From positions 55,981 to 119,980 of the IMG/VR virus record IMGVR_UViG_3300042397_001782: 64,000 nt of DNA, one strand, 5' to 3'. Positions 37,906 through 58,642 of this stretch are shown here, in pieces (positions within the stretch are counted from its first letter, which is position 1; the number at the start of each line of letters is the position of its first letter). Source of the stretch: a virus. The notes under the pieces were generated by a model. It saw only the letters and a program-made list of their open reading frames with translations, did not search any database and was not told the DNA's origin. The position numbers and the translations under genes are program-made.

Positions 37906-38334
37906 ATGGGAAAATATTTTAATGCTTTTATAATGTCCATAATAACTTTTTTTTCTCCTATAGTAGGATTATTATTAGCTGTCGGAGCTATGATTATTTT
38001 AGACACTGTATTAGGAATTACAAAGGCTATTAAAAATGAAGGATGGGAATCTGTTACTTCAAGAAAAGCAAGTGTTATTATAAGTAAATTTTTACTTTAC
38101 CAATTAACAGTAATAACATTTTTTATAATAGACTATAACTTAATAAATGAGTTTACAAAAGTACATTATCAAAACAATTATTTATTAACTAAATTTATAA
38201 CACTCTCTTTATGTTTTGTTGAAGCAAAAAGTATAGATGAAAATATTAAATCTATATTTGGATTTTCTATTTGGACAACCCTAAAAGAAGTTTTAATGAG
38301 AACACAAGAAATAAAAAAAACTATAAAAAAATAA
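37906..38334 (+). CDS. Holin
   Basis: Three TM segments; ILDTVLGI and EAKSIDEN motifs; precedes an endolysin. Confidence 0.75.
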   Translation: MGKYFNAFIMSIITFFSPIVGLLLAVGAMIILDTVLGITKAIKNEGWESVTSRKASVIISKFLLYQLTVITFFIIDYNLINEFTKVHYQNNYLLTKFITLSLCFVEAKSIDENIKSIFGFSIWTTLKEVLMRTQEIKKTIKK

Positions 38335-38338
38335 AATT

Positions 38339-38806
38339 ATGAAATTATCAAAACATTTAGATCTAGCGGAAGTTACAAGATCAGAAACTGCAAAAAGAAA
38401 TGGAGTTAGCAACATACCTACTCCTGAGCATATTGAAAACTTTAAATTATTGGCTGAAAAAATATTCGAGCCTATTAGAGAGCATTTTAATGTTCCTATT
38501 TTTATATCTAGTGGATATAGAAGCAAAGCTTTAAACCAAGCTATTGGTGGGAGTTTAACCTCACAACATTGCCAAGGTGAAGCAATTGATATTGATATGG
38601 ATGGTAGCTCAAGCGGAGTTACTAATGCTCAAGTATTCCAATTCATTAAAGACAACTTGAATTTTGACCAAATGATTTGGGAATTTGGAACAGATAAAAA
38701 TCCTGATTGGGTTCATGTTTCTTATGAATCAACTGGTAAACAAAGAAAACAAATACTTAAAGCCATAAAAGTTAACGGTAAAACAAGTTATGTTCCTTAT
38801 AAATAA
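38339..38806 (+). CDS. Peptidase M15A-type endolysin
   Basis: ISSGYRS..LN.AIGG...SQHCQGEAID and WVHVSY Zn-binding motifs. Confidence 0.9.
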   Translation: MKLSKHLDLAEVTRSETAKRNGVSNIPTPEHIENFKLLAEKIFEPIREHFNVPIFISSGYRSKALNQAIGGSLTSQHCQGEAIDIDMDGSSSGVTNAQVFQFIKDNLNFDQMIWEFGTDKNPDWVHVSYESTGKQRKQILKAIKVNGKTSYVPYK

Positions 38807-38838
38807 ATTAAAACTACAAAAACTTAAAAAATAAAACT

Positions 38839-39099
38839 ATGAAATTTTTTAGAGAAATGTTTAGCGATGATAATTCAATTAATGAGAAATCTGTTATTGG
38901 ATTCCTGGCATTTATTATGATGTCCTTATTCGCAATTGTAGATATTGTTACAGGATATTTAGGAAAAGAGCTTGTTGTAAATGAATTTATATTCAATGCT
39001 TTTGAAGTGCTAGTGTTAGGTTCATTTGGTATTGCAGCTACAGAAAAAATTACAAGCATTATAAAATCTAATAAAAACGAAGAAAATGAGTCTGAGTAA
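38839..39099 (+). CDS. Second holin-like two-TM protein
   Basis: Two TM helices, charged C-terminus, overlaps the next lysin gene. Confidence 0.6.
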   Translation: MKFFREMFSDDNSINEKSVIGFLAFIMMSLFAIVDIVTGYLGKELVVNEFIFNAFEVLVLGSFGIAATEKITSIIKSNKNEENESE

Positions 39100-39697
39100 A
39101 TTACAAGAAAAAATTGGGGTAACTGCTGATGGAGCGTTTGGCCCTGGAACAATGAAAGCTGCTATGGCTTTTTATGGGTTTACACCTGAGAGAGCTGCAC
39201 ACTTTTTTGCACAAACAGCACATGAGTCTGGAAACTTTAAAGCGTTCTCTGAAAACTTAAACTATTCTGCTGACGGATTGGTAAAAATCTTTGGCAAATA
39301 CTTTACAGCGGCCACTGCCCCTAAGTATGCTAGAAACCCTGAAAAAATTGCTAACAAAGTTTATTCTTCTAGAATGGGCAATGGTGACGAAGCTTCAGGA
39401 GATGGCTGGAAATTTAGAGGAAGAGGGGCTCTTCAATTAACTGGTAAATCAAACTATCAAGCATTTTCAGATTATTTGAATAACCCTGATATTATGACTA
39501 ATCCTGACTTAGTTGCAGGTGAGCTTTCTTTTGAGTCTGCTAAATTCTTTTTTGATAAAAACAAACTTTGGGATATATGTGATAAAGGTGTAACCAAAGA
39601 AACTATTTTAGCCCTTACTAAAAGAATAAATGGGGGTACCCATGGTTTGGCTGATAGAGAAGAAAAAACCTTTAAATATTATACATACGTTAAATAA
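39086..39697 (+). CDS. GH19-family endolysin with N-terminal peptidoglycan-binding motif
   Basis: LQEKIGVTADGAFGPGT; FFAQTAHESG; FRGRGALQLTGKSNY; TKRINGGTHGL. Confidence 0.9.
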   Translation: MSLSKLQEKIGVTADGAFGPGTMKAAMAFYGFTPERAAHFFAQTAHESGNFKAFSENLNYSADGLVKIFGKYFTAATAPKYARNPEKIANKVYSSRMGNGDEASGDGWKFRGRGALQLTGKSNYQAFSDYLNNPDIMTNPDLVAGELSFESAKFFFDKNKLWDICDKGVTKETILALTKRINGGTHGLADREEKTFKYYTYVK

Positions 39698-40158
39698 TGA
39701 AATATTTATTTATAATTCTTATTGTTTTACTAGCAGTATATATGTGGCTATCACATGATAAGTTTGTTCAAAACGAAGCTATTATACAAAGACTAGAAGA
39801 CAGTTTGTCTAGAAAAGTAGACACCTTGATAGTAGAAAGAGATGTGGTAAAAGACCATTACATTAAATCTAAAGAGATTGTATATAAGATAGACGAAAGA
39901 TACATTGCAGGCAAAGATTCTGTTTGTGATAGCTTAGTAGTAGCCCTAAAAACATCTCTTACAAACTGTGATAAAGTAATAGTTAAATCAGATACTTTAA
40001 TCAAAACCCTTCTTGTGAGAGACACAGTTAGAGTGAAACATATACAATATTTACAGGCAAGAAATAAATTTTCTTTAATAGCTGGCCCAACCCTATCCTT
40101 TACTCCACAAGGAATACAACCTGGTGTTGGTATTGCTTTTGGGCTAAAGATAAAATAA
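39697..40158 (+). CDS. Spanin-like membrane protein
   Basis: N-terminal TM, coiled coil, C-terminal amphipathic beta-strands; last gene of the lysis cassette. Confidence 0.5.
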   Translation: MKYLFIILIVLLAVYMWLSHDKFVQNEAIIQRLEDSLSRKVDTLIVERDVVKDHYIKSKEIVYKIDERYIAGKDSVCDSLVVALKTSLTNCDKVIVKSDTLIKTLLVRDTVRVKHIQYLQARNKFSLIAGPTLSFTPQGIQPGVGIAFGLKIK

Positions 40159-40163
40159 AGCTA

Positions 40164-40193
40164 TTGACAAATAAAATAAATGTTGTATATTTG
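40164..40193 (+). promoter_or_regulatory. Consensus-like Bacteroidota promoter with no downstream ORF
   Basis: TTGACA-N16-TATATTTG. Confidence 0.75.
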
Positions 40194-40197
40194 TGCC

Positions 40198-40510
40198 AAA
40201 TTTATCTCACTGAGACAAATTTCTAGTGCCTGACGTTTGAGGGGAAACCCTGGTTCATAAGATTTCACTAGATAGTTTTAAATAAGTAAGGACCTCCGAG
40301 GATTAACAATTCAGATACCTTCAGGGATAGGAGAGGAAAAAATAGGATCAATGACGTAAGAACTGGGCTTCCCAGTTTCCTATTAAAATACACGATAGTA
40401 AATATTCCTAAGTACAGAGATGTATATGGAAATTTATGAACGAACTTACCAATAGAAACAAGATAAATGCGTTTATTGCAAAGTATATTCTGATTTCCTA
40501 GATTTTTTTT
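40198..40510 (+). ncRNA. Candidate structured non-coding RNA (~300 nt)
   Basis: Promoter-driven, no ORF in track, multiple stems with GNRA loops and a long-range pairing (see findings). Confidence 0.55.
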
Positions 40511-40635
40511 CTCGGGAGAACCCTCTATTTCTTTAAATAATATACTATAATCTTTAGTACTATTAATATGCTCTAACTATGCCCAAAAAAAATCACAAAA
40601 AATACATTTTTTTCTTTGAATTAAAAAAAAAGAAG

Positions 40636-40643
40636 TATCTTTG
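40636..40643 (+). promoter_or_regulatory. TAnnTTTG promoter element for a small RNA
   Basis: tatctttg followed within 80 nt by a terminator. Confidence 0.6.
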
Positions 40644-40644
40644 C

Positions 40645-40720
40645 GTGAGATAAATATAAAGATAGAGCAATTCTATCGGATACCCCTTGCTGATTCCCTT
40701 TGAGCAAGGGGTATTTTTTT
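40645..40720 (+). ncRNA. Candidate ~70-nt small RNA
   Basis: Promoter, gataga/tctatc hairpin, 12-bp terminator; no ORF. Confidence 0.5.
40680..40720 (+). terminator. Intrinsic terminator
   Basis: ataccccttgct/agcaaggggtat stem plus T-run. Confidence 0.85.
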
Positions 40721-40815
40721 ATAAAAACTAATAAAATCATAATTTTTTTTTACTTTTGTGAAAAATTATGTGCAATAAATAAAAAAAGCATTACTTTTGC
40801 ATAAAAAATATAATA

Positions 40816-42033
40816 ATGGTAGCACAAAAAACAATAAATAGATTTTTAAGTTGGAGAGAAAATAATCAAAATTATCTACAATTTGGAAGACCGAGTAAGA
40901 AAACTTTACTTAAAAGACTTAACAGAGAAGGGTTTAACCTTTGTCCAGAAGAATTAAGTTTTTTACTCAAACACTCAGGAAAAAATTCTTTTGTAAAAGA
41001 AAAAATAAATGAAGGGACTAATGTATGGGTTCCTTCGGAAATGGTAGATACAGTTAAAGAACTCAATGCCATCTACCAAGAAAGTAAAAAACTAGGATTA
41101 GATGTGGAAGACGTAAAGCATGGGTGGTTAAAAACACAAGATGCCTCAATGTTCTTCACTAATCCTTTATATAAGAAAAAAGAAGAGGATGGCTTCTATA
41201 ATGAACTAATAGAAGATTTACAAAGTTTTTCTCCTTCTTTTCCTGTCATAAAAAGAACACCTAGTAGTGAGGGCCATTTACTAATTATTGACCCTGCGGA
41301 TATACATGTGGGCAAATTAGCTATGGCTTTTGAAACAGGAGATGAATATAACACTAAAATTGCAGTAGAAAGAGTTTTAAAAGGAGTACAAGGTATTTTA
41401 GACAAGACATCAGGATTTAATATTGACCAAATTCTTTTTGTAGGCGGTAATGATATTTTACATATTGATACTCCAAAAAGAATGACTACTTCTGGTACTC
41501 CTCAAGATACAGATGGAATGTGGTATTCTAATTTCTTGGTAGCCAAGCAGTTGTATGTAGATGTATTAATGATGTTAATGCCAGTGGCAGATGTTCATTT
41601 CACATTTAACCCATCGAACCATGACTACACTAATGGCTTCTTTTTAGCGGATGTTATTAAAACATACTTTAAAGATTGCAAAAATATAACATTTGATTGT
41701 TCTATTGCACACAGAAAGTATTATAAGTATTATAACAACTTAATAGGAACAACTCATGGAGATGGAGCTAGACAAGCAGATTTGCCATTATTAATGGCAC
41801 ATGAAAGTAAAGATTGGAGCGATTGTAAGCATAGGTATATTTATACGCACCATGTGCACCATAAAACTGCTAAAGACCATATAGGGGTAACAATTGAAAG
41901 TTTAAGAAGCCCTAGTGCTTCAGATAGCTGGCACCATCGAAATGGGTATACAGGAGTACCAAAGGCGATAGAAGGGTTTATTCACCACAAAGAATTTGGA
42001 CAAGTGGCAAGGTTAACTCACATATTTATATAA
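40816..42033 (+). CDS. Calcineurin-like metallophosphoesterase
   Basis: DIHVG, GNDILH, SNHD, HGD, HVHH metal-binding motifs; tacttttg promoter elements at ~40751 and ~40792. Confidence 0.85.
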   Translation: MVAQKTINRFLSWRENNQNYLQFGRPSKKTLLKRLNREGFNLCPEELSFLLKHSGKNSFVKEKINEGTNVWVPSEMVDTVKELNAIYQESKKLGLDVEDVKHGWLKTQDASMFFTNPLYKKKEEDGFYNELIEDLQSFSPSFPVIKRTPSSEGHLLIIDPADIHVGKLAMAFETGDEYNTKIAVERVLKGVQGILDKTSGFNIDQILFVGGNDILHIDTPKRMTTSGTPQDTDGMWYSNFLVAKQLYVDVLMMLMPVADVHFTFNPSNHDYTNGFFLADVIKTYFKDCKNITFDCSIAHRKYYKYYNNLIGTTHGDGARQADLPLLMAHESKDWSDCKHRYIYTHHVHHKTAKDHIGVTIESLRSPSASDSWHHRNGYTGVPKAIEGFIHHKEFGQVARLTHIFI

Positions 42034-42037
42034 CAGT

Positions 42038-42232
42038 ATGGGGCCTTTTTTTTATTCTACAGGAGGTACTATAAATAACAACCAAACCAATGTTGATATG
42101 GGAGAAAACAGTATAAATCTAATATCAATTTATAGATACTTTATTTCCCATCCTTCATGCCAATTTAGAAATATGCCTTATCAAATTTTTGCACCAAGTT
42201 ATAAAAATTGGTTAGAAGCTAAGTATAATTAA
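42038..42232 (+). CDS. Hypothetical protein (64 aa)
   Basis: ORF track; fills the gap between neighbours. Confidence 0.55.
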   Translation: MGPFFYSTGGTINNNQTNVDMGENSINLISIYRYFISHPSCQFRNMPYQIFAPSYKNWLEAKYN

Positions 42233-44240: not shown

Positions 44241-47200
44241 ATGGCAGAGCAAAATAATAATAAAACAAGAAGTTTACAAGATATAAAAAACTATACCTTC
44301 ACCAAAGGTATGAATGATGACGCTTCTCCAGAAGCACAGCCTGCAGATACCTACAGAGCCGCTTTAAACATGGTGAAAGAATCCTCTGAAGGAGATGAGA
44401 ATTTTCTCACCACAGAATATTCTAATGCATTTAGAATCAAGTTGCCTGGAAAAGTTTTACATTCTAACTTGATTAAGCAATTAAATCAAGTTGTAGTCTT
44501 CTTGCACACAAATGAAATAGGATTATATGACCCTAATTTAAATACTTATACTAAGTTATATGCTTCTCCTGGTTTAAATTTTTCAATATATATAGATTCT
44601 GTATCTTTTACAAAAACAGAATGTGAAGATGTTGTATTAATTTTTTGGGACTCAGTAAATAGAGTGCGAAATATTAATATATCTAAATTTATAAAAGAAG
44701 GGCCTGGTGATGGTCCTGTTGAGGAATTAGAGTTATTTAAAACTGCAGACACTTGTATTAATTTAAGTGATGTAAGTTTTATAGAAAATGCTGCTTATAA
44801 TGTAGACGCAGGAGTTTATAGACCTTTTATTCAATATGAAGATGAGGATGGTAATACTACTAATTATTATATAATAAATGAAAATATACCTTTAATAGAA
44901 GATGGTACAAATGGTACCTATGAGTACATTGATGGGAATGAGTCTAAAATTTTAAATAAAAGTATTGTACTAAAATTTGATAATGTAGACACTAAATATC
45001 CTTTTATTAACGTAGGGTTTATAAAAACAGTTAATGGAGTGCCCACTGCTTTTATTTTTAAAAGAAAGCAACCTACAAATATTTTTTCTACAGTAACGTA
45101 TGAAGGAGATACTACTTTTATTCAAACTGTAGATATTGCAGAAGTTCTAACTAAAAGAGCTTTTTATTTATCTGCAAAAACAGGTTTAATTTATAATAAT
45201 AGTTTACTATTAGGAGGATTAAAAGGTAAAAGAAATGTTGATTATCAACAATATGCAAATAAAATTTCTGTAAAATATGTAACAGGAAGAATTAATTTAA
45301 GTAGAACAAAGGGATATAAAAATCCTGAACATATTATTCACCATAAGTCTTGGATGAGGGATGAAAATTATATGTTAGGTATTGTATTAGAGTTTGAAGA
45401 TATGTCAGAATCTGCTGCATTTCCTTTAATAAATAAACAATATACTCCTTTTCCTGAATTTACAGGTTCGGGAGGTCCTAGACCTGAGACAAATGATACA
45501 AAATTATGTTGTACAGATGATAGAGTTTATTGGAAAGAAGTTAATACAGCAAAAAGAACTGCATATAATCATTTTGCAGGAGACCTTAGTGTAACAGATT
45601 TTTGTTCAGGAACTATAGATAATAATTCTAACAATATTAGATCTGAGGGTTATTTAGGTTATTTTGAATCAGAAGAAAAATATCCTGTTATATTAAGATG
45701 TGGAGCTTCTCCAGGGTCATTAGATGTTAATGATTATATGTATCCTGTAGATACTAGCACTGGAAAAGCAATAGGAAAAAATATTACATTATTTAAAATG
45801 CCAGACTCTACTATTGAGCCTTTCCACAATAATATAATAGATGATTTTGCTATTGAAGATAATAAAAATAGATTTGATAGTAAATATGATAATTTAGAAA
45901 TTTATCCTTTAGGTTTAAAACTAGAGAATATAGAGTTTCCTACACTAGAAGAAACAGATGGGGTAAAAGTTACAGGATATAGAATTGTATATGTAAGGAG
46001 AGACACTTTTAATAAGTCAGTACAAGATAAAGGTTGGTTTGTTGAGATGTTTAAAAATAATCTTAATGGCACAGATTATATTTATCCTAAACATAATGTT
46101 AATTCTGGAGCTAAGTGGGATTATTTTTCAAATCTTAGAGATAGAACTATTGAAAGCTCTAGCCCTATACAAGATTTTGTAAGAAACTGTGGATATGGAA
46201 AACACTATGATAATGGTATAATATTTTATGGGGGTAATACATTATTTTCTCAACTAGGAGTTAATGTTAATCATGTTAAAATAGAGCAACAATATAATAC
46301 AACAGGTTATTATATAGATTCTGTTAGAGGTCAAAATTCTGATAGGTTTAGTACTATAGGAGATAATACTTATGACCCTTCTACATTTTTAGATAAAGAT
46401 GGTAGATTTAGATCTGCTTCAATACAAATTTATAATTTATATAATTATGGATATGACCAAAAGTCGGATGGAACTTTAGATAGAAGTAGAGGCTATTTTA
46501 ATAGAACAGAAGTTATTTATCAATTTAAAAATATTTGTACAGATAACTATTCTTATGTAAATGATAATGTCATTCTTAATAAAATTTTAAACTCAGATTT
46601 TTCTTTAGTTAATTTTTACAGAGAAAGTGGGTTTTATTTAGATTTTAATAACCCTACAGACTTATCATTTAATAAAAATTATAGAGAGTTTAATAATCAA
46701 ACTTTTACAGTAGCGAGTACTACTACAGTAACTATACCTCTTAATACTTTTTTATCTCCAGGGCAAATTGTAACAATATCTAATTTAGGGGGTTGTAATA
46801 CTACTTCTGTATTTGGCCCAGTAGGTAGACAATTTACTGTTATTAATGGTACAACATTACAAGTAATAGGAACTCCTTTTACTTTGGCTCAAGTTGGTTT
46901 AAGTTGTAATACTATTGACTATGATGTAAGTACTTCTAGACAATATTTTAATTCAGATTCTAGTGCAAAAAAATGTAATTGTACTACTTTATTTGATAAT
47001 ATTGTAGAAAATATAATTGGTGGAATAGGGGTAAGATTGTTGACAGCAACTTCAACATCTGATATATTAGTACCTATTCCTCCCGCTACATCTTTTCCTA
47101 CAACAATAACTGATTATCCTAACGGAACAATATTTACTATTAATGCAGTGTCTCCTCCTACTGTTCCTTTTTTAGCTGGAGATAAATATAAATGGAATAG

Positions 47201-49532
47201 TACATTAAATCAATTAGAAAAACAAAGTCCTTATTATAGTCCAATACCTTCTCCTCTTCCTATAGATACTACTTTAGATTTTGAAGCAGATACATGGGTA
47301 AACCAAACTTTTACAGTCCCTGCTGGACTTGGAAAAATAATTAATTATGCTAACTCTTTACCTACAGGTTCTCAAATAACTATTATAAATAGTCCAGGAT
47401 CACCATTGGCAAATGGGCAATCTTTTATTGTAAGTAGTACTACTCAAATAACTTATACAGGATTTTTTAATTTAGATGGGGGCAGTTCAGGAGTAACACT
47501 ATCAAATGTTTCTATTAGAGTTAATTTAATGCCTGGAAATAGCGATCAATATTTTTTAGAAAATTATTTAGATAATGCTACTTCTACAAATATTTTAAAT
47601 GATTGTAATACAGGGTATATTTACTATGGTTCCATAAAAAATAACTTACCTAGACAATATGGAAGTATTGATGATATGTTTTTTATTGATACAGGGTTGA
47701 AAGGATGTGCTGGTCAAAACAGTTTGATAGGATTTTATGGAGATAGTTATATTAATACTTTTTCTTTTGTAAGAACAGGTGTTACAGGAATGTTAGAAGA
47801 TTCTATTATAGATGATAATAGTGCTACATTTGCAGATAAATTTGACCCTAAATATACTATAAATAATATAATAGGGGCAAGCAATAGGTCTTATTTATTA
47901 AATTTATACTTAGCTCAAAAAGCAAATATAACTTTATTAAACACTGTTACAGAGTCTGATGTAAACTTAGATTTAAGATATGAAGGGCCTACTTTTAATG
48001 AAGTGTATTATCCTAAATTAGCTAATGGTAAATATAAATTATTTTCCACTAGAAAAATTGAATATGCAGAAGACTGTTATTTAAATACTTATTTTTATGA
48101 ACTATTTTGCAATAATAAAAATGATAATTGTACAACTAGTGCGACTGAATTCATAGAATATAATGATGCCTATAGAAATTTCCATGATAATAAAATAAAC
48201 TTAAATAATGATTATAATGAATTAAATGGTATGAGATTTAATCTTATTAAACCAATTAATTCTACATATAAAACTTGTGAGTGTGATACTGAATTTGACA
48301 ATAGAATTGCAATTTCTTCTAAAGATAATCAATCTATTAGTCAATTAAATTATAGTAAATTTTTACCAAATGATTTTATTACACTACCTCATAAAGAAGG
48401 AAAGATAACTAATTTATTTAAAGAAAACCAAGTACTTTATGCACATACCACAGATAATGTTTGGAAATTACTTACATTAGAGTCTAGGCTTCAAGCGGAT
48501 AATAATCAAGTATATTTAGGAACTAATAATTTATTATCCAGTCAATCTCTAGAATTATTTGCTTCTAATGAAGGATATATGGGATTACAAGATAAAAGAT
48601 TTTCATTCCAAAATAATACTGGATATTTCTTTGCAGACTTAAAAACCCAAACATTAAATCTAATGTCAGGGGGAAGGTTAGATGCTATTTCTACTTATGG
48701 TATGAACAGCTTCTTTAAAAACCAATGGAATACATACTTTAATTCTTATGGGGCTTCTACAAACTCTAATTTGCCTATTATACCTCAATCAAACCCAGAT
48801 TTGTCCACAGTGGAGATTTATTTTGGATATGATTATAGACATAAAAGACTTCTTCTAACGGATAAAACAAACGGATTTACCCTTAGTTATTACCCAGAAG
48901 ATAAGGCATTTTATTCTTTCCATTCGTATCTACCAATGGCGTATCTTCAGAATAGAGACACTTTCTTTACTCAGAATGATAATTATGACGTTTATATACA
49001 TCAAGATAACTTTAATTCTTATAGAAAATTCTATGGTGTTAATTACCCTTCTTTAATTGACGGAGTATTTACCTATCATCCATTAGTATACACAACACTT
49101 AATAATGTTGGTATGAAAATAGATGCCTATAAAAATGTTAACGGTCAGCTATTGATTACCAATGAAGTACCTACAAGTTTACAGGTTTGGACTAGCAGAC
49201 AACATAGTGGGGAAGTTTTCTTAAAAACTCCTATTAACGCTGATTACATGGAGAATGTTGTATTAAATAATCAATTTCACAACATAATAAATGGGGTTGT
49301 ATATTGTAACAACTTGGCTAACTATGTGTTAGACGATACTATTAATTTTTTGAATGGGGATATTTTTCCAGTTCCTAATGCCAATGTAAGTTTTTCTAAG
49401 GATTGGACCCAAGTAGATAGGCTTGAGAATAATTTCTTTAACTATCGAATCAGTATAGATAACAAAGATTTAGAAAATTTAAAATTTATACTTAAATTTA
49501 CAGTTCTTAATTACAATATATCCATGCGTTAA
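44241..49532 (+). CDS. Tail stabilization/muzzle protein (P22 gp10-like)
   Basis: 1763 aa; FTKGMNDD...YRAALNM N-terminus; KSWMRDENY; FTLSY...FYSFHSYLP C-terminus. Confidence 0.78.
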   Translation: MAEQNNNKTRSLQDIKNYTFTKGMNDDASPEAQPADTYRAALNMVKESSEGDENFLTTEYSNAFRIKLPGKVLHSNLIKQLNQVVVFLHTNEIGLYDPNLNTYTKLYASPGLNFSIYIDSVSFTKTECEDVVLIFWDSVNRVRNINISKFIKEGPGDGPVEELELFKTADTCINLSDVSFIENAAYNVDAGVYRPFIQYEDEDGNTTNYYIINENIPLIEDGTNGTYEYIDGNESKILNKSIVLKFDNVDTKYPFINVGFIKTVNGVPTAFIFKRKQPTNIFSTVTYEGDTTFIQTVDIAEVLTKRAFYLSAKTGLIYNNSLLLGGLKGKRNVDYQQYANKISVKYVTGRINLSRTKGYKNPEHIIHHKSWMRDENYMLGIVLEFEDMSESAAFPLINKQYTPFPEFTGSGGPRPETNDTKLCCTDDRVYWKEVNTAKRTAYNHFAGDLSVTDFCSGTIDNNSNNIRSEGYLGYFESEEKYPVILRCGASPGSLDVNDYMYPVDTSTGKAIGKNITLFKMPDSTIEPFHNNIIDDFAIEDNKNRFDSKYDNLEIYPLGLKLENIEFPTLEETDGVKVTGYRIVYVRRDTFNKSVQDKGWFVEMFKNNLNGTDYIYPKHNVNSGAKWDYFSNLRDRTIESSSPIQDFVRNCGYGKHYDNGIIFYGGNTLFSQLGVNVNHVKIEQQYNTTGYYIDSVRGQNSDRFSTIGDNTYDPSTFLDKDGRFRSASIQIYNLYNYGYDQKSDGTLDRSRGYFNRTEVIYQFKNICTDNYSYVNDNVILNKILNSDFSLVNFYRESGFYLDFNNPTDLSFNKNYREFNNQTFTVASTTTVTIPLNTFLSPGQIVTISNLGGCNTTSVFGPVGRQFTVINGTTLQVIGTPFTLAQVGLSCNTIDYDVSTSRQYFNSDSSAKKCNCTTLFDNIVENIIGGIGVRLLTATSTSDILVPIPPATSFPTTITDYPNGTIFTINAVSPPTVPFLAGDKYKWNSTLNQLEKQSPYYSPIPSPLPIDTTLDFEADTWVNQTFTVPAGLGKIINYANSLPTGSQITIINSPGSPLANGQSFIVSSTTQITYTGFFNLDGGSSGVTLSNVSIRVNLMPGNSDQYFLENYLDNATSTNILNDCNTGYIYYGSIKNNLPRQYGSIDDMFFIDTGLKGCAGQNSLIGFYGDSYINTFSFVRTGVTGMLEDSIIDDNSATFADKFDPKYTINNIIGASNRSYLLNLYLAQKANITLLNTVTESDVNLDLRYEGPTFNEVYYPKLANGKYKLFSTRKIEYAEDCYLNTYFYELFCNNKNDNCTTSATEFIEYNDAYRNFHDNKINLNNDYNELNGMRFNLIKPINSTYKTCECDTEFDNRIAISSKDNQSISQLNYSKFLPNDFITLPHKEGKITNLFKENQVLYAHTTDNVWKLLTLESRLQADNNQVYLGTNNLLSSQSLELFASNEGYMGLQDKRFSFQNNTGYFFADLKTQTLNLMSGGRLDAISTYGMNSFFKNQWNTYFNSYGASTNSNLPIIPQSNPDLSTVEIYFGYDYRHKRLLLTDKTNGFTLSYYPEDKAFYSFHSYLPMAYLQNRDTFFTQNDNYDVYIHQDNFNSYRKFYGVNYPSLIDGVFTYHPLVYTTLNNVGMKIDAYKNVNGQLLITNEVPTSLQVWTSRQHSGEVFLKTPINADYMENVVLNNQFHNIINGVVYCNNLANYVLDDTINFLNGDIFPVPNANVSFSKDWTQVDRLENNFFNYRISIDNKDLENLKFILKFTVLNYNISMR

Positions 49533-52500
49533 TGGCTAAAGGTAAAAATAAACTTAATAAACCTAATTCTTCAGGGTGGTTGGATAACTACTCTGAGGAA
49601 TTTTCTATTAGTAAATATGCTGATGGAGATAGAGTTATTGACCCTTTACTTTCTCCTGGACAGCTAGCTCAACTAAATAAATTAAAAGAATTATCAAAAA
49701 AACTTCCAAAAGATGAAGAAATTCTTTTAAAACAAATGCAAAATAAAAGAGCTCAAGATAAATTATCTGTTTCAAAAGAAAAAACTACTGCTGATAAATT
49801 AAAAAAGCTTGTTAGAGAGCCTGTTACTACATTAGCAGACCAAGCTGAATATAATAATTTTGATTTATTATTTGGTACTCCAGGAAGAGTAGGTACAGGT
49901 ATATATAGTACTGTTGGTAATTTATTAACTCCTTCTACTTATCCTACATTAGGAAAAGGTGCGGTTAATTTAGTTAGTAATGCTTTAGCAGATAAAAATG
50001 TTTATGAGGGAGTTAATGAAGATGCTAGTAAAATATTAGGAGAAGGGTTAGATATTTTAGATATAATAGATATGGGAGTGGCTTTAAAGTCTTTGCCTTA
50101 TTTAAATAAATATATACCTAACTCTAAACAACTATCTGGTTCTAGTATAACTTCTTCTGTAGAGGATGTTGGTAAAGGTTTTAAATCAGAAATAGATAAT
50201 ATTAGTTCTGATATTTTAAAACTAAGGGAGGAAAAAACCCTTTATGAAAATAATTATAAAAACCTTATTAGTAGATATAAAAATAAAGAAATAACTCCTG
50301 AACAATATAAGATAGAGTACCAAAAAATATTACCAAAAGATGTGTATTTATTAGGGGATTTAGAGAAAAAAGTAAGAGAATTGCGAGTAAGACAAGATAT
50401 TTTTAACACTCCACAAAAAAATATATTAAACTCTAAAAACCAATTAGGTAAAAATATATCCGATGGTGGGTCAAATAATAAAGGTGTTTTTGAAATTGGC
50501 GATAAGTATGTAGCAAAACTATCAGCACATGGATATGATGATGCAAGTAGATTGGTGAATTACGCTGATAAAATTAAGTCTTCAAGAATAATGAAAACAC
50601 ATCAAGTTAAAGATATAGATGGAAAAGTTTATTTAGTTCAAGATAAAGCAAAAGGCACTCCTTATACTAAATTATCAGAAAAAGACTTAAAAACTATTCC
50701 CAAAAATCAAATAGATAATTTTTATAATGATATTGCAGAATTAGAAAAAAATGGTTTAAATATAGATATTAGTGGGAATAAATCAAATATATTTTATGAC
50801 CCTAAAAAAGGATTTCAGTTTATAGATTTAGGAATAGGTAAAATGCCAGATATTGAAGATATAAATAAATTAGTTATTAAAAAACAAGATGGGGGAGAAA
50901 TAAATCAATATGAAGATGGTGGCAAATTAAAACAATATTTTAAACTTCCAACCAAACGTGTTGCTGTGGATAACACTTATAATAAGAATAGTCCAATAGG
51001 CAACAGTTCTGATGATAAGGAAATGGTTAACAGGTTGTTAATAGAAAAAGTCAACAACGCCCGAAAGGCTAAAGAAAATGAAGATGCAAAAAAATATGTA
51101 GAAAAAGACTTTAAAGAATCTGTAGATTTCTTTGAGAATTATTATAATTCTCCTAGATACAAAGAAATGTTAAAAAATTCTACAAATCTAGAAGATGTAT
51201 ATAATGAACAAAGAATAGATAATCTTAGAACTACTGCTGCATTTAGTAAAAATAATGATGAAGGAAATCCAAATAGTTTTGGATATTCTAATAGTTATTC
51301 AGGAGATATTTCTATTTTACCTGCGGGTAGGGGAGATAAATATACAATGACACATGAACTAAGTCATTCTTCTGATAGACCCTATATTTCTTCATTACCT
51401 AATGAATTATTTAAAGATTTAGGGTTAAAAACTAGATTTAATCCTACAAAATCTGTTTTAAAAAACGTATTAAATATTGGAACTACTAAAAATAGAGTAA
51501 TACCCTATTTAGATGAAATGAGAATTTTAGATAACCAAAAAAAGTTTGATTCAAAATTTCATTTAAATAAAAATAATATTAATGAAGAAAACTTTAATTC
51601 TTTTTATAGAAATTATGTAGGAGAGCCTACTGAAGTAAGAGCAAGGTTAATGGAAATTAGAAGAGGGGGACTAGACAATAATATTTATAATCCTTTTAAA
51701 GAAAAGGTTACTCCTGAAAATTATAAAAAATTAAAAGATTACTTTTATAAAAAAGATGACATAGATAGTCCAATTTTTGATTTAGAACAGTTATACGATG
51801 AAAATAAAGTTATAAAGTTTTTAAATGAAATTTCTGAAAACAAAGAGGAAGACACAGTTCCAATGGCTAAAAATGGAGGAGAAATAAACCAATATGAAGA
51901 TGGGGGCAAATTAAAACAATATTTTAAACTCCCAACCAAACGTGTTGCTGTAGATAACACTTATAATAAGAATAGTTTAAAATTAGACAGTTCTGATGAT
52001 AAGGAAATGGTTAACAGGTTATTAAGAGAAAAAGCCAATGAATCCCAAAAGGCTAAAGAAAAAAGGATAGCTGATGTAAGAAGGCTAGAAGAGTTAAATC
52101 AGAAATCTATGTTAGAAACTGCAAATGCAAAAGATTTGTATGACATAGGAGAAGGGATGAAAAGTAAATATAGATTTTCAAATGAAGACAACTTCTTTGA
52201 TGACTATATTAACCCACTTAATATGGTAGGGGGAATGGCTGGAGGATTAGCTCAAACTCCAGAATTAATTAACCAAGGAGAGTATTTAAATGCAGCATTA
52301 AATGTAGGATTACCTTTAACCGTTGGGGCTTTAGCAGGTATTGGCACTCAAAATACAGGACAGTTTGTAAATAACTTAATTAATCCTTTAGCTGATGTAA
52401 GTGATAAACTTTTAAAAAAACAATCAGTACAAAAATTTTTAAAAACCCCTCGTTTTGATTTAGGTCGTAAAGAGTTTTTACCAGAATCTTTATCTTTTGA

Positions 52501-54586
52501 TTATCAAGATTTAGGTGATGAAAATTTTGCTGTTTTATTAAAAGACCCTAATAATAAAATCCAAGCAAATCTTTCTTTATTTAAAGAAGATGAAGATTGG
52601 TATAAGCCTAGAATGATTACAGTAAAAGAAATTCTTCAAGGACATAAAATACAAGATATTTTATATCAAAAAGGTATTGAAGAAGTTAGAAAAAAAGGCT
52701 TAAAAGGTATTAGAAGTGGGGATTATTTAATGGAACCAGAAAAAACTATAAAAGCTCAAAATAGATTTATTAAAGAAAATTTACTGCCTGATGCTAGTAC
52801 ACAAAATAAAAATTTACCTATAGTAGGATTATTAAACCATAAAAATCCAAATTTATATGAAGATTTTTTTGCATATTATGCTACTATACCTAAAGAAATA
52901 AAATATAAACATTCTATAAAAGAATTGTATGATAGTTTTAAAAATATACTACCAGGTAATAAATCTACAAAAGCTTTAGAGTATTTAAATGGTGGTACCA
53001 TAAATAACAATATGAAAAATAAAAAAACTAAAAAATATCCTGCAGGAGGTTATCTTAATTATCAAGAAGGATATAAAGGATTCGGTATGGGTCCTGAATT
53101 ATATCAAGATAATTCATACTTTAGATCAGTAATGCCTGACAATATTGAAGATATGGAAGAAATGATTAATAAACCAAGCGTATTTTCAGGAATTAATGAT
53201 GTATTAGGTTCTGTAAATCAAGGAGTTAATCAAGTTACTGGGTTAATGAGTAAATTTCAAAATCCACAAACAGGTATGACTAATACAGGTATGATTAATC
53301 CTGAACAAGCTTTTATGCAAAATTATCAAAGTACTCCAGGAAAAAAAATAGATATTAACGATCCTGCTAACCTTACAGATTTTGAAGATTTTGATATGTC
53401 AAATCTTTGGTCAGATTATTTTAATCCTTCAAAATCATCTAATCCTTTTCCCTCAAATTTATTAAATTCAGTTGCACCTCCAGCTAAAAATGGAGGTTAT
53501 TTAAAAAAATACCAAGATGGAGGAGAAATGGATATGTTGCCTGTGGGTGCCCCAGAATATATTCATAAAAGCAATGTATTTAATGAACAGTATAATCCTG
53601 TACCGAGAGTACATTTTAGTGATGATACTACTGCTTATGATATGGGAGTAAATCTAAATGATTTAGTAAATATGAACGGAGGTAGAATAAGACAATATGC
53701 AGGAGGTGGTTTTGCAGAAATGTATGGTAATAGTTATGGCGGGGCATCTAGTTCTCCTAGATTATTTAATGCAAATACAGGTAGAGCAACTTTAGGAGAA
53801 TTACAAGCTGCTACTCAAAATGATTTTTTAAATACAAAAGTAAGAAATGATAGACAACAGTTTGTAGATGATAAAGTAGATTGGGGTGCATTTAACTTTT
53901 TAAAACAACCTGCAGGATTTGTATTAGGTAGATTAAGTGAAGTACCGATTGTAGGAAATATTACTAAAAGTGCTTTAGGAGATTCTTTTTTAACAAGAAC
54001 AAAAGGTTACACAGTAGGGTCTGGTGTAGGAAAAACTATTACGGGGGTTGGAAAAATTGCTGGAGGTATAGCTACAGGTAATGTTGGTATGGTAGGTAGT
54101 GGTATTGGAGATGTAGGTTCAGGAGTTGGAAGTACTTATGGTAATTTAGCTGCTAGAGATGCTATGTCAGATTATAATAAATCAGGCTATGTTTCAAATA
54201 AAAGACTTGAAAAAGCTTCCCAAGATTTTGGTAATATGATGGATACTGCTTCAGGGTTATTTGGTAACATAAAAGGAGGAGTAGGTATGGCTAAAAATAT
54301 GGGGGGAATGGAAGGAATGTTTGGAAATATGAAAGGAGGCCAAACAGGTATGAAAGGATTTGGTAATTTTATGGGTAATTTGACAGGATTTAGAAACGAA
54401 GATGGAGGCATGTTAGATTATGAATATACTATGGTTCCTGAGTTTAAAAAAGGAGGACTTACTCCTAGTAAAGCAGAGAAAATGTTACACGATAAAAGTT
54501 TTACTACTGATAAACAAAGAAAATACTTTGGTTATATAGCTTCACAAAATAAAAAAACTGAGGGTGGTTGGTTAGACTCTCTATAA
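49532..54586 (+). CDS. Modular polyvalent putative cargo protein: kinase-like, zincin (HELSH), GNAT-like and Gly-rich membrane segment, delimited by GG motifs
   Basis: Motifs described in findings; lies directly after the stabilization gene, where crAss-like cargo genes sit. Confidence 0.75.
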   Translation: MAKGKNKLNKPNSSGWLDNYSEEFSISKYADGDRVIDPLLSPGQLAQLNKLKELSKKLPKDEEILLKQMQNKRAQDKLSVSKEKTTADKLKKLVREPVTTLADQAEYNNFDLLFGTPGRVGTGIYSTVGNLLTPSTYPTLGKGAVNLVSNALADKNVYEGVNEDASKILGEGLDILDIIDMGVALKSLPYLNKYIPNSKQLSGSSITSSVEDVGKGFKSEIDNISSDILKLREEKTLYENNYKNLISRYKNKEITPEQYKIEYQKILPKDVYLLGDLEKKVRELRVRQDIFNTPQKNILNSKNQLGKNISDGGSNNKGVFEIGDKYVAKLSAHGYDDASRLVNYADKIKSSRIMKTHQVKDIDGKVYLVQDKAKGTPYTKLSEKDLKTIPKNQIDNFYNDIAELEKNGLNIDISGNKSNIFYDPKKGFQFIDLGIGKMPDIEDINKLVIKKQDGGEINQYEDGGKLKQYFKLPTKRVAVDNTYNKNSPIGNSSDDKEMVNRLLIEKVNNARKAKENEDAKKYVEKDFKESVDFFENYYNSPRYKEMLKNSTNLEDVYNEQRIDNLRTTAAFSKNNDEGNPNSFGYSNSYSGDISILPAGRGDKYTMTHELSHSSDRPYISSLPNELFKDLGLKTRFNPTKSVLKNVLNIGTTKNRVIPYLDEMRILDNQKKFDSKFHLNKNNINEENFNSFYRNYVGEPTEVRARLMEIRRGGLDNNIYNPFKEKVTPENYKKLKDYFYKKDDIDSPIFDLEQLYDENKVIKFLNEISENKEEDTVPMAKNGGEINQYEDGGKLKQYFKLPTKRVAVDNTYNKNSLKLDSSDDKEMVNRLLREKANESQKAKEKRIADVRRLEELNQKSMLETANAKDLYDIGEGMKSKYRFSNEDNFFDDYINPLNMVGGMAGGLAQTPELINQGEYLNAALNVGLPLTVGALAGIGTQNTGQFVNNLINPLADVSDKLLKKQSVQKFLKTPRFDLGRKEFLPESLSFDYQDLGDENFAVLLKDPNNKIQANLSLFKEDEDWYKPRMITVKEILQGHKIQDILYQKGIEEVRKKGLKGIRSGDYLMEPEKTIKAQNRFIKENLLPDASTQNKNLPIVGLLNHKNPNLYEDFFAYYATIPKEIKYKHSIKELYDSFKNILPGNKSTKALEYLNGGTINNNMKNKKTKKYPAGGYLNYQEGYKGFGMGPELYQDNSYFRSVMPDNIEDMEEMINKPSVFSGINDVLGSVNQGVNQVTGLMSKFQNPQTGMTNTGMINPEQAFMQNYQSTPGKKIDINDPANLTDFEDFDMSNLWSDYFNPSKSSNPFPSNLLNSVAPPAKNGGYLKKYQDGGEMDMLPVGAPEYIHKSNVFNEQYNPVPRVHFSDDTTAYDMGVNLNDLVNMNGGRIRQYAGGGFAEMYGNSYGGASSSPRLFNANTGRATLGELQAATQNDFLNTKVRNDRQQFVDDKVDWGAFNFLKQPAGFVLGRLSEVPIVGNITKSALGDSFLTRTKGYTVGSGVGKTITGVGKIAGGIATGNVGMVGSGIGDVGSGVGSTYGNLAARDAMSDYNKSGYVSNKRLEKASQDFGNMMDTASGLFGNIKGGVGMAKNMGGMEGMFGNMKGGQTGMKGFGNFMGNLTGFRNEDGGMLDYEYTMVPEFKKGGLTPSKAEKMLHDKSFTTDKQRKYFGYIASQNKKTEGGWLDSL
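50889..52062 (+). repeat. 190-bp intragenic direct repeat (50889-51078 and 51873-52062)
   Basis: Both copies encode GGEINQYEDGGKLKQYFKLPTKRVAVDNTYNKNS...SSDDKEMVNRLL; offset 984 bp, in frame. Confidence 0.9.
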
Positions 54587-54597
54587 AAAATAACAAT

Positions 54598-57204
54598 ATG
54601 AAAGAATTATTATTAAAACTTGCTAAAGTTAAAAATGAGAAGGAATTCTATAAAAAGTATCCTACTCAAGAAGCATTCTTTAAGGCACATCCTGAAGCAA
54701 AAGAAATTATTGCTCAGTATCAGCAAGAAATGATGGCAAATTCCCAAGAAGAAATGCAAGGTAATCCTGAAGCATCTATGGAAAAAATGGCACAAGGAGG
54801 TTTGATAAGAAGAGCAGATGGCTCTTACTCTCAAAGAGGGTTATGGGATAACATAAGAGCTAACAAGGGTTCAGGTAAAAAACCTACAAAAGAAATGTTA
54901 GAGCAAGCTAAGAAAATCCAAGCAGAAGAAATGATGTATGGAGGAATGATAGATGAATACGGAAATGGAGGTTACACTGTAAGAAGAAGTAATGATAGAA
55001 AAGGTAAAACACACGTTGTTACTGGCCCTGATGGTACTAAAAAATATTTCGGGGATCCTAATATGGGTGAAAGAAGTAAATCTAAGCATGGTAAAGAAGC
55101 TTTTTATGCGAGACATAAAACAAATTTAAAAAATAACCCTTATTTTAGAGCTTATGCAAGATCAACTTGGGAAGATGGAGGAATTCTTCCTGATATGCAA
55201 CAATTAATGTTAGCAGGACAAGACATGTATAATATGGGAGGATATGTAGAATATCCTACAATGTACCCTGGAGGGGGAATGATAGCAGGTCCTATGATGG
55301 GGTATGTAGATAATTTTAACTATGCTATGGGAGGAAGAATGTATGAGCAAGGCGGCATGATAAATAGCATGACACAAGGTATTCCTGTACAGACAGAAAC
55401 ATTTGAAGGACAGGCAGAACAAGTTGCTTTGCCTGATGGTACAATTAAGTCAGTAGATGCTACTACTACTCATGAAAATATGTCAGACGGAGAAGTAACA
55501 GATGTTTTACCAGGAGGTTCGCATATTCAAAGTGCTCGTAATAAACTTACTACTGATCAGTATGCACAGTTAATGCAAATGTTTAATCCTGAGAGTGCCG
55601 AACAAGATATTAAAAAATTATCACAAGTATATCAAAATAAATATGGTAAGAAGAATGGTAAAAAACTTTCTCCTGCTGATATTTCAGAATACGCTAAAAA
55701 TAAATACCAAACAAAATCTACTCCAAATGCATTTGATACTGATAAATTAAAAGAAGGAAATAAAAAAGCCTACTTGGAATTGAGTATGCAAATGAATGAT
55801 TTGATAAAGTCAGGAAAAGAAATTGCTGAAGGTAAAATGCCTGAACAAACACCAATGATGGCTTGGGGAGGAAATGTAAATAAATATGTTGGTGGAGGAG
55901 AAATTGATACTTTTTTAAGCCAATTATTAACCCCAGAAACCACTAATCTAATTAAAAACACTACTTTTGATGAAAGTAGAGGAAAATATAGATTAAATAT
56001 GGAGCCTAATATGAGTTTGCAGGAAAAAATGGGTTTAGCTGATGCTGCGGAAAGATTTGGTATCAATAATTTAGTACAAGGAAGAAATAAAGATTTTCCT
56101 AATTTTGTAGGGGGATTTACTCCACAAGATTTTGAAAAAAGAATTGTATATGCTAATGAAGGACCTAAAGGTTTAGAGAATAAATCAGATCTTGAAATAA
56201 GAAAAAAAGCTTTAAACTTAATGGGATACAAAGGTAATCTAAGTGATACTCAATTAAGTGATGTAAAGTCTTTATATAATGATCCTAGATTTAAAGAAAT
56301 CTATTCAAGTTTTACCAATTACCTTCCTTCTGATAAATTTAGAAAAACAAGAGGTAATGATTTTATGATGGGTGCTGAACATTTTGATGCTTTAGGAAAT
56401 TATGTAGAACCTCAGCCAATAACGGCTACACCAGCAATAATTGCTCAAACTCCTGGAGAAAAAGTTGCTGGCCCACAATTAGGTGCAACAACTCCTGTGT
56501 CACCAGCGGCCAGAATTCCTATGCAAAATAGATTTAACTTTGGATTACTTGAAGGTCAATTAGGTAGAGGTTTACAAGGTAATCAAGCTTACTTAAATGC
56601 AGCTATGAGTTTATCTCCTGTTTATACAATGGAAACACCTGATACTTTTATTAGAAGCAGAAGAAATGAAATTCCTATAGGAAATATATTATATAATATT
56701 GAAAGAGCACAAAGAAACTCTGCTAATGCTTTAGCAAATCAAACAGGAGATTGGAGCACATTGGCAGGTAATATTGCTAATGCTGGAGCACAAGCTTATA
56801 ATCAAATAGGAGATACTTTAAGTGCTCTAAATGAGAAAAATCTAGGGTTATATAATACAACTCAAGACTTACAACAAAATCTATTGAGCTCTAATGTAGG
56901 GGTAAGAAATCAAAATCTTACCAACATGCAAAATATGATGAATTATAAAAGGAACTTATCTGGACAAAAAGCTGTTAAAGATGCAGAACTATATTCTAAA
57001 TATGTAAAATCTATGTCTGAAAATTCTCAAGAAGAACAAAATCAAAAACTAGCAATGTTAAATATTATGGCTTCTAAACCAGATATGTTTAAAGGAGAAC
57101 AAGGACAAAGATTTGCAAATCAGATTATGGGTAATTACGGATCTTATAATAATCCTTTTGCAGGATCAGTATTAGATTTTGGATTAAGTAATTTATTTAA
57201 ATAA
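54598..57204 (+). CDS. Second GG-punctuated putative cargo protein
   Basis: ATG 54598 preferred; EFYKKYPTQEAF N-terminus; many [MYW]xxGG motifs; Q/N-rich helical C-terminus. Confidence 0.8.
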   Translation: MKELLLKLAKVKNEKEFYKKYPTQEAFFKAHPEAKEIIAQYQQEMMANSQEEMQGNPEASMEKMAQGGLIRRADGSYSQRGLWDNIRANKGSGKKPTKEMLEQAKKIQAEEMMYGGMIDEYGNGGYTVRRSNDRKGKTHVVTGPDGTKKYFGDPNMGERSKSKHGKEAFYARHKTNLKNNPYFRAYARSTWEDGGILPDMQQLMLAGQDMYNMGGYVEYPTMYPGGGMIAGPMMGYVDNFNYAMGGRMYEQGGMINSMTQGIPVQTETFEGQAEQVALPDGTIKSVDATTTHENMSDGEVTDVLPGGSHIQSARNKLTTDQYAQLMQMFNPESAEQDIKKLSQVYQNKYGKKNGKKLSPADISEYAKNKYQTKSTPNAFDTDKLKEGNKKAYLELSMQMNDLIKSGKEIAEGKMPEQTPMMAWGGNVNKYVGGGEIDTFLSQLLTPETTNLIKNTTFDESRGKYRLNMEPNMSLQEKMGLADAAERFGINNLVQGRNKDFPNFVGGFTPQDFEKRIVYANEGPKGLENKSDLEIRKKALNLMGYKGNLSDTQLSDVKSLYNDPRFKEIYSSFTNYLPSDKFRKTRGNDFMMGAEHFDALGNYVEPQPITATPAIIAQTPGEKVAGPQLGATTPVSPAARIPMQNRFNFGLLEGQLGRGLQGNQAYLNAAMSLSPVYTMETPDTFIRSRRNEIPIGNILYNIERAQRNSANALANQTGDWSTLAGNIANAGAQAYNQIGDTLSALNEKNLGLYNTTQDLQQNLLSSNVGVRNQNLTNMQNMMNYKRNLSGQKAVKDAELYSKYVKSMSENSQEEQNQKLAMLNIMASKPDMFKGEQGQRFANQIMGNYGSYNNPFAGSVLDFGLSNLFK

Positions 57205-57219
57205 TTAAATTAATAATTA

Positions 57220-58629: not shown

Positions 58630-58642
58630 ATTAAATTTACAA

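Follow-up and report, generated by a model that had tools for sequence, protein, structure and literature searches.

Genomic Setting and Features of the Locus

The window, that is, the whole stretch of DNA that was analysed, spans 64 kb at the end of an IMG/VR virus record of 119,980 bases, which is complete according to CheckV. Nearly all of its long ORFs lie on the + strand, and matches to PHROGs in this phage include a terminase, a portal, and a major head protein. Flavobacterium phage FpV4 and related phages provide the best named relatives of the head protein (32% identity), and its matches, 116 records, include crAss-type phages of Bacteroides, Cellulophaga, and Azobacteroides. On the basis of these relatives, the phage is treated here as crAss-like, with a host among the Bacteroidota. 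Phages of the crAss-like group rank among the most abundant known. The distal part of the window (44241–64000) is occupied by successive very large ORFs of 1763, 1684, 878, 469, and >1786 aa, with the 1763-aa ORF matching a virion structural protein PHROG across its first 400 residues only.

The RNA gene described here sits in a 656-base gap (40159–40815). Two endolysin-like genes and an unassigned 153-aa ORF lie upstream of the gap, and a 405-aa gene of PHROG 704, annotated as 'DNA repair exonuclease', lies downstream. The lysis-gene block (37906–40158) is a mosaic among close relatives (compared in L089, L092, L096, and L009): the endolysin-like genes of 155 and 203 aa are present, absent, or reordered, and the identity of the 153-aa ORF falls to 53% in L089. 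The elements recognized within the gap are listed below in 5′ to 3′ order.

40164–40193, + strand: promoter, consisting of TTGACA, a 16-nt spacer, and TATATTTG, which corresponds to the −7 box TAnnTTTG of Bacteroidota sigma-A
40198–40222, + strand: P1, the 5′ hairpin, with the core UCUC/GAGA (40205–08/40212–15)
40222–40272, + strand: P2, seven pairs (40222–28/40266–72) enclosing a large invariant internal loop and P2a
40240–43/40248–51, + strand: P2a hairpin, capped by the GAAA tetraloop 40244–47
40273–40285, + strand: joining strand J2/3, A/U-rich, invariant in 12/12 sequences
40286–40290 (GUAAG) with 40445–40449 (CUUAC), + strand: P3, closing the junction that holds P4, P5, and P6
40293–40326, + strand: P4/P4a hairpin (40293–95/40324–26, 40298–301/40318–21, 40302–04/40314–16), taken from the MFE model
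40327–40342, + strand: purine-rich linker, AGGAGAGG followed by an A run, in which AGGAGAGGAAAAA is invariant and the length of the flank varies by 1 nt
40343–40382, + strand: P5 (40343–47/40378–82) and P5a (40361–67/40371–77)
40393–40442, + strand: P6 domain, with outer pairs 40393–94/40441–42, P6a (40398–401/40434–37), the receptor, and P6c
40407–12 (CCUAAG) with 40425–29 (UAUGG), + strand: 11-nt tetraloop receptor, flanking the five-pair, GNRA-capped hairpin P6c
40412–16/40421–25, + strand: P6c hairpin, with the GNRA loop 40417–20
40450–40485, + strand: tail, with a predicted, weakly kept hairpin (40450–56/40473–79)
40486–40525, + strand: variable stretch with a conserved end element, YYUC followed by GGGAGAACCC (40510–23), a possible 3′ boundary
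40636–40720, + strand: neighbouring unit, comprising a second TAnnTTTG box, TATCTTTG (40636–43), about 70 nt, and a hairpin terminator

Carriers and Variants of the RNA

A search with the exonuclease protein yielded 80 related loci in IMG/VR, and the RNA is present in six of them (L002–L007, by blastn or nhmmer) and absent from the other 74, nhmmer having found no copy in L008–L081. Two loci with 80% exonuclease identity illustrate what may stand in its place: L008 has a 371-aa gene with two PAS domains (L008:1774–2889), and L009 has only a 120-base gap. Searches with exact motifs located the RNA in 15 IMG/VR contigs; three such motifs and one two-anchor pattern all converge on the same 14–15 contigs. 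When metagenomes were scanned with the two-anchor pattern, 23 matches were obtained, seven of them true homologs according to nhmmer and 16 due to chance. In total, 29 copies representing 13 distinct variants are available.

These variants belong to about four to five lineages, namely, the window type, the L004 type with L113, L092, and L089/L091. The copy in L093 (3396–3723) is a chimera, with its 5′ part identical to the window type, its 3′ part identical to the L089 type, and the crossover located between ~40266 and 40343 in window coordinates. No match was found among GenBank phages in 'distant' mode, and 185,579 species genomes yielded 13 pattern matches and no homologs. When 93 sources were searched with a covariance model of the 3′ domain, only the window matched, and the 92 further loci contained no copy.

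There is one copy of the RNA in the phage genome, and in every carrier the exonuclease gene follows it directly; on the upstream side, the neighbour is a different one in L092, where the RNA itself is unchanged. As an optional cassette, the RNA occupies a variable slot with the lysis genes on one side and the exonuclease gene on the other, and it is confined to a small clade of freshwater crAss-like phages.

Conservation differs strongly along the locus, as is evident from comparison with L089, the most distant full carrier. Identities to L089 are as follows.

40200–40340, RNA 5′ domain: 95.7%
40341–40449, RNA 3′ domain: 71.8%
40450–40485, tail: 66.7% (and 83% even against the near-identical L094 type)
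40486–40590, spacer: 55.0%
Upstream ORF: 62.2%
Exonuclease gene: 76.1%

Judged by these identities, the 5′ domain is held much tighter than the neighbouring proteins, and the 3′ domain diverges as fast as its surroundings. A 140-nt domain that remains nearly unchanged against flanking genes at 62–76% identity points to some partner or activity.

Promoter, Transcript Boundaries, and RNA Libraries

The promoter assigned to this RNA by the first-pass annotation, TTGACA-N16-TATATT(TG) at 40164–40193, is present, and the core of this element (40164–40191) is the top promoter-like site of the region 39500–41500, with 11/12 matches. The TAnnTTTG box is kept in 13/13 variants, and the spacer between the boxes varies from one variant to another. 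According to PMC9723704, the TAnnTTTG box of Bacteroidota sigma-A is located at −12 to −5; by this rule, transcription would start near 40198, and the predicted start is placed at ~40198–40200 from the position of the box.

On the 3′ side, no clean terminator follows the RNA core, and the upstream ORF is likewise not separated from the RNA by a terminator. The element YYUC-GGGAGAACCC is kept in all full-length variants within a surrounding spacer that is only 55–74% identical, and a contig from an RNA library extends to 40514; the end of the RNA gene is predicted at about 40480–40525. Farther downstream, the neighbouring unit ends with a strong hairpin terminator (40683–40711, followed by a T run) that has a conserved 11-nt loop and a stem in which two pairs are compensated in the L089 type. 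This unit (40636–40720) is counted as a neighbour of the RNA gene. A third TAnnTTTG box, TACTTTTG, lies at ~40789–96, within the stretch 40765–40815 that precedes the start of the exonuclease gene, and with those at 40164–40193 and 40636–43 it makes three consecutive promoter-like boxes in the 656-base gap.

A 3.1-kb query (39000–42100) was compared with public RNA runs, and contigs were obtained from three metatranscriptomes of three studies, labelled riverine or freshwater, each containing only a small share of the query. They align with the window at 40297–40514 (no differences), 40220–40455 (one difference), and 40068–40292 (one difference), jointly covering 40068–40514. Outside this range, four RNA runs cover only the 32 nt of 39236–67, and absence there carries no weight. 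Such contigs, which cannot give strand, ends, or level and come from libraries that can hold DNA, lend modest support to the existence of this stretch as RNA reaching at least 40514. The contig 40068–40292 runs from the upstream ORF across the promoter into the RNA, and it is equally compatible with a separate transcript, with transcription that continues from the lysis operon, and with DNA.

This contig is among the observations that would be explained if the RNA were a cis-acting part of a longer transcript, either as the structured 3′ end or a processing site of the lysis operon, or as the head of a ~520-nt RNA extending as far as the terminator at 40711–40720. The lack of a terminator between the upstream ORF and the RNA agrees with such an arrangement, as does the location of the sole strong terminator at 40683–40720. 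In the ~520-nt version, 40200–10 would pair with 40645–55 in the 5′ flank of the neighbouring unit, and in the window these two segments are indeed exact 11-nt complements. However, this complementarity is absent in L089 and L093 and contains one mismatch in L092, and the intervening stretch 40486–40590 is the least conserved of all (55–74%). The adjoining TAnnTTTG box is kept in every one of the 13 variants, and the RNA is unchanged in L092 in spite of its different upstream neighbour. We consider a cis-acting role, in either version, improbable. The pairing of 40200–10 with 40645–55, which is not kept in L089 or L093, was dropped as a part of the mechanism.

Coding Potential and Family Assignment

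The first-pass annotation described the DNA that follows the promoter as free of ORFs. This applies to ~290 bases of the RNA locus, and no + strand ORF of at least 30 aa is present between 40159 and 40699. With any single stop codon reassigned, as in alternative genetic codes, no + frame is open beyond 58 codons. The variants differ from each other by 1-nt indels, which were counted in favour of a non-coding character.

The − strand deserves separate consideration, as it could encode a small hydrophobic protein, perhaps lysis-related, that in the window would have 41 aa (from 40393 down to 40268). A stop-free frame of at least 54 codons exists in 13/13 variants, and the peptide is hydrophobic and adjoins the lysis genes. 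Nevertheless, no start codon is conserved, and the longest ORF beginning with ATG, GTG, or TTG has 13 aa in three variants, 35 in three, 41 in four, and 51 in three. Upstream of 40384 the frame is shifted by 1-nt indels, no TAnnTTTG box is found on the − strand within 40261–40700, and all other genes in this region are on the + strand. The frame ends at 40268, whereas both conservation and compensated pairs reach 40200. Such a protein would be a most implausible explanation for the locus.

No Rfam family matches the 64-kb window at the gathering score, and when 39900–40900 was searched at E ≤ 10, nothing was found within 40195–40520. Neither ARAGORN nor Rfam returned a match to tmRNA, RNase P, 6S, or other catalogued housekeeping RNAs, and the novelty of the class, which in the first-pass annotation was left to a comparison with Rfam, holds. 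ARAGORN found no tRNA or tmRNA genes in the 64-kb window. The non-coding RNA of a retron or a defence RT was discarded as a candidate on account of the missing reverse transcriptase gene (no PF00078 matches in the 119,980-base record); PMC9226505 concerns UG27 RTs and has no bearing on this RNA gene. No paper describing a structured RNA gene of crAss-like phages surfaced in the full-text literature that was searched, supplements lying outside that search.

The RNA gene is best explained as a new family of free-standing, compactly folded non-coding RNA with a length of about 280–330 bases. Its kind is one already known, and it is classed with the free-standing, intricately folded phage RNAs that have no assigned function. 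The core of the original reading, a promoter-driven, structured, non-coding RNA of ~300 nt outside the recognised classes, is upheld by the Rfam results, the conservation, the pair changes, and the RNA-library contigs. That the locus carries a real structured RNA gene is, in our judgement, very probable.

Secondary Structure

The fold of the single sequence is not more stable than that of its shuffled versions (z = −1.49 for the + strand and −1.36 for the − strand), so the case for structure rests on the comparison of variants. Eight of the 58 modelled pairs are changed on both sides. The model of the 3′ domain comprises 29 fixed pairs and eight distinct rows; 97.0% of its cells are standard pairs, and six of the 29 pairs are changed on both sides. 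The covariation score of this domain was reached by none of 500 shuffles and the count of double-changed pairs by 10 of 500, and in a control in which partners were slid by 1–3 columns only 0–1 double-changed pairs remained. RNAalifold, run without a supplied model, recovers 27 of the 29 pairs, omitting two that are broken by a register shift in the L089 type. The 5′ domain also has 29 pairs, with 99.0% pairing and two double changes (one in P1, the other in the GAAA hairpin of L113), a count matched by 24 of 500 shuffles, which makes its pair statistics weak.

G·U or U·G is found at 11 modelled pairs, and A·C occurs in none of the nine unpaired cells, which indicates that it is the + strand that is functional as RNA. 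The variants represent only about four to five independent lineages, with most double changes contributed by one of them; the covariation is therefore real but thin. An exhaustive scan for helices illustrates the background level, since a competing four-pair helix, 40362–65/40396–99, also shows two 'covarying' pairs by chance. Covariation among homologs had been named in the first-pass annotation as a check on its pairings; helices are kept through compensatory changes, but these are few and come from few lineages.

In the 5′ domain, P1 has one double change, C-G to U-A in L091, with U·G at the same place in L089, and two unpaired cells, in L113 and L089. The UCUC/GAGA core of this hairpin had been recognized previously; the outer AAAUUU/AAAUUU pairs proposed with it are not retained, as they fall at or before the predicted start and position 40199 is U in 8/12 sequences. 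The helix 40222–28/40266–72 enclosing AGGG-GAAA-CCCU (40240–51), also noticed earlier, is present and kept in the variants as P2 and P2a. One of the seven pairs of P2 shows a change from A-U to G·U, and in P2a one double change from G-C to A-U is accompanied by one wobble in L113.

The 3′ part of the molecule is a plain multi-helix junction closed by P3. The complementarity of GUAAG and CUUAC that defines P3 is present as previously annotated, and its five pairs do not vary, leaving the helix neither supported nor contradicted by comparison. All 10 pairs of P4/P4a are invariant as well, and the variable sites in this hairpin, 40312 and 40322, are unpaired. A second cct/agg hairpin that had been suggested in this region (40318–20/40323–25) would have a 2-nt loop, which rules it out. 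In the linker that follows, GAGG (40333–36) is a candidate for pairing with the four bases that precede the conserved GGGAGAACCC (40514–23), to which it is complementary in all full-length variants, with no double changes.

P5 and P5a are separated by a bulge of 12–13 nt that carries the invariant GACGUAAGA. The pair 40343/40382 of P5 changes from U-A to C-G, and 40363/40375 of P5a passes through a series of C-G, U·G, and U-A. The AAUAGGA/UCCUAUU pairing of the first-pass annotation survives here in its core, UAGGA/UCCUA, and loses its outer two pairs in variants with a 1-nt deletion. P6 has four double-changed pairs, two in P6a and two in P6c, and the same helices are obtained from RNAalifold unaided. 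The AACUGGG/CCCAGUU and UACA-GAGA-UGUA hairpins, both recognized at the outset, are present with compensated pairs in the 3′-domain model.

A pseudoknot formed by 40253–60 with 40434–41 had also been put forward. None of its eight pairs is double-changed, three of 10 sequences each lose two pairs (one to a deletion and one to A·C), and its 3′ strand overlaps P6a, a helix whose compensated positions include precisely 40434 and 40436; this pairing is not supported. A short GUUC/GAAC contact, 40253–56/40438–41, is possible. The self-complementary ACGU occurs, invariant, in two unpaired stretches, 40233–36 and 40354–57, and the pairing of these two invariant strands with each other is a candidate for a further contact.

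GAAA Tetraloop and 11-nt Receptor

The GAAA tetraloop of P2a and the 11-nt receptor in P6 are the strongest feature of this RNA, one that the first-pass annotation missed. The receptor is on the two strands of one helix, and the GAAA loop is elsewhere. Both the tetraloop (40244–47) and the receptor are unchanged in 13/13 variants, and the two helices that adjoin the receptor carry four compensated pairs. The loop of P6c reads GAGA, GAAA, or GUGA and is GNRA in every case. The receptor pattern CCUAAG…UAUGG is found once in the window, inside the RNA, with 0.91 occurrences expected per 128 kb (both strands of 64 kb); for one strand of a 330-nt stretch, arithmetic gives a chance expectation of ~0.002. 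The chimera in L093 indicates that a 5′ part from one lineage can cooperate with a 3′ part from another, which fits an interface made of invariant pieces.

In group I introns of the Tetrahymena type, a GAAA tetraloop docks into an 11-nt receptor in the P4–P6 domain. The RNA described here resembles that domain in having the exact letters of the receptor closing a hairpin and a GAAA loop on a separate short helix, both invariant, as well as in size and helix density, which are those of an independently folding RNA domain. It differs in that it does not lie in an intron, lacks exons, has its own promoter, and gives no match to RF00028, and neither a P3–P7 pseudoknot nor a G-binding site is recognised in it.

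This resemblance raises the question of a ribozyme, or of a group I intron fragment that was domesticated and has kept a P4–P6-like folding module. The highly conserved unpaired core of the RNA and its tetraloop and receptor of the group I intron kind speak for such an origin, and the pattern composed of the receptor and the strand that follows it matched the two short lake-phage contigs L120 and L121, which hold a group I intron. However, a search at E ≤ 10 that found the L121 intron gave no match to RF00028 within 39900–40900, and the local alignment of the RNA with that intron scores 42, compared with a mean of 29 and a maximum of 49 for shuffles, the letters common to both being mostly those required by the pattern. 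The RNA is bounded by a stop codon and a promoter and interrupts no gene, relatives lacking it show an intact gap of 120 nt or a PAS-domain gene between the same two genes, and it is served by its own promoter. No small-ribozyme family in Rfam matches it either. A ribozyme or an intron remnant appears quite unlikely on these grounds, and homology to the L120/L121 intron was dropped as a candidate, the similarity not exceeding that of shuffles. The intron itself (L121:1145–1503, − strand, and L120; RF00028, 51.6 bits) contains an 11-nt receptor, and the sequence upstream of it in L120 resembles an endonuclease reading frame.

Comparison with Known Phage RNAs

Among catalogued RNAs, GOLLD (RF01998) and ROOL (RF03087) share with this one the traits of being phage-encoded and free-standing, with many helices, conserved unpaired nucleotides, and an origin in lake-type samples. 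GOLLD and ROOL are two to three times larger than the ~300-nt RNA and adjoin tRNA genes in phage or prophage DNA. The present RNA, in contrast, matches neither RF01998 nor RF03087 in sequence or structure and has no tRNA genes in the 64-kb window, and it is found, with a very narrow distribution, in crAss-like phages of Bacteroidota.

A tetraloop and its receptor in a single chain usually dock intramolecularly. An alternative use of the two motifs would be intermolecular docking in a self-assembling 'ornate' RNA that, like ROOL or GOLLD, forms a homo-oligomer (a dimer, ring, or cage). Both of those RNAs form RNA-only assemblies according to the abstracts of two reports (10.1101/2024.12.08.627333; PMC12990946). 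A phage-borne RNA with an invariant tetraloop and receptor and no adjoining gene for a protein partner would suit such an assembly, as would the invariant, self-complementary ACGU at the unpaired positions 40233–36 and 40354–57. Self-assembly is nonetheless doubtful for an RNA of ~300 nt, much smaller than either family, that matches neither of their Rfam models, has no tRNA neighbourhood, and carries both motifs on one chain, where docking within the molecule is the rule.

The pRNA of phi29 offers another comparison, being likewise phage-encoded, separately promoted, folded, and not an antisense regulator. The phage described here nevertheless has the usual large terminase and portal, and its RNA bears no similarity to pRNA in Rfam. 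The RNA is optional among close relatives, which makes it unlike an essential packaging RNA.

Proposed Mode of Action

In the proposed mechanism, host RNA polymerase with sigma-A would start the RNA at ~40198 from the TAnnTTTG promoter. The transcript would fold into a 5′ domain (P1 and P2/P2a) and a junction domain (P3 enclosing P4, P5, and P6), and docking of the GAAA loop of P2a into the receptor of P6 would clamp the two together. The almost invariant, largely unpaired 5′ domain may then serve as the working surface. During infection, the RNA would act in trans as an accessory ('moron'-like) factor that binds and holds a partner, most probably a protein of the host or the phage; neither an antisense regulator nor a leader is envisaged.

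The reading as a trans-acting accessory follows from the kept promoter, the slot that holds another accessory gene or nothing in relatives, the optional presence of the RNA, and its frozen 5′ domain. We infer both the action in trans and the existence of a partner from the position in a variable slot and the pattern of conservation, and binding of a partner by a trans-acting accessory RNA is put forward as a tentative mode of action. The reading in its entirety, that is, a real + strand gene of a new folded non-coding RNA family with the proposed fold and a role in trans, is favoured, with some reserve.

We can also speculate that the RNA is a phage RNA machine of a new class, with an invariant 5′ domain that either catalyses a reaction or captures a host factor or a small signalling molecule. 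An example of capture would be an RNA that counters a defence system of Bacteroidota as a 'sponge' or decoy, carried as a swappable cassette in the slot that holds a PAS-domain sensor gene in sibling phages. This extension is unlikely enough to be offered with caution, and no result points specifically to catalysis or packaging. The roles put forward in the first-pass annotation (ribozyme, protein decoy, packaging or replication RNA) are likewise conjecture.

The locus lends itself to direct study. At ~300 nt, an independently folding RNA with a loop-and-socket contact is within reach of direct structural analysis, and the close relatives that have no copy of it provide natural phages 'with' and 'without' the RNA for comparison.
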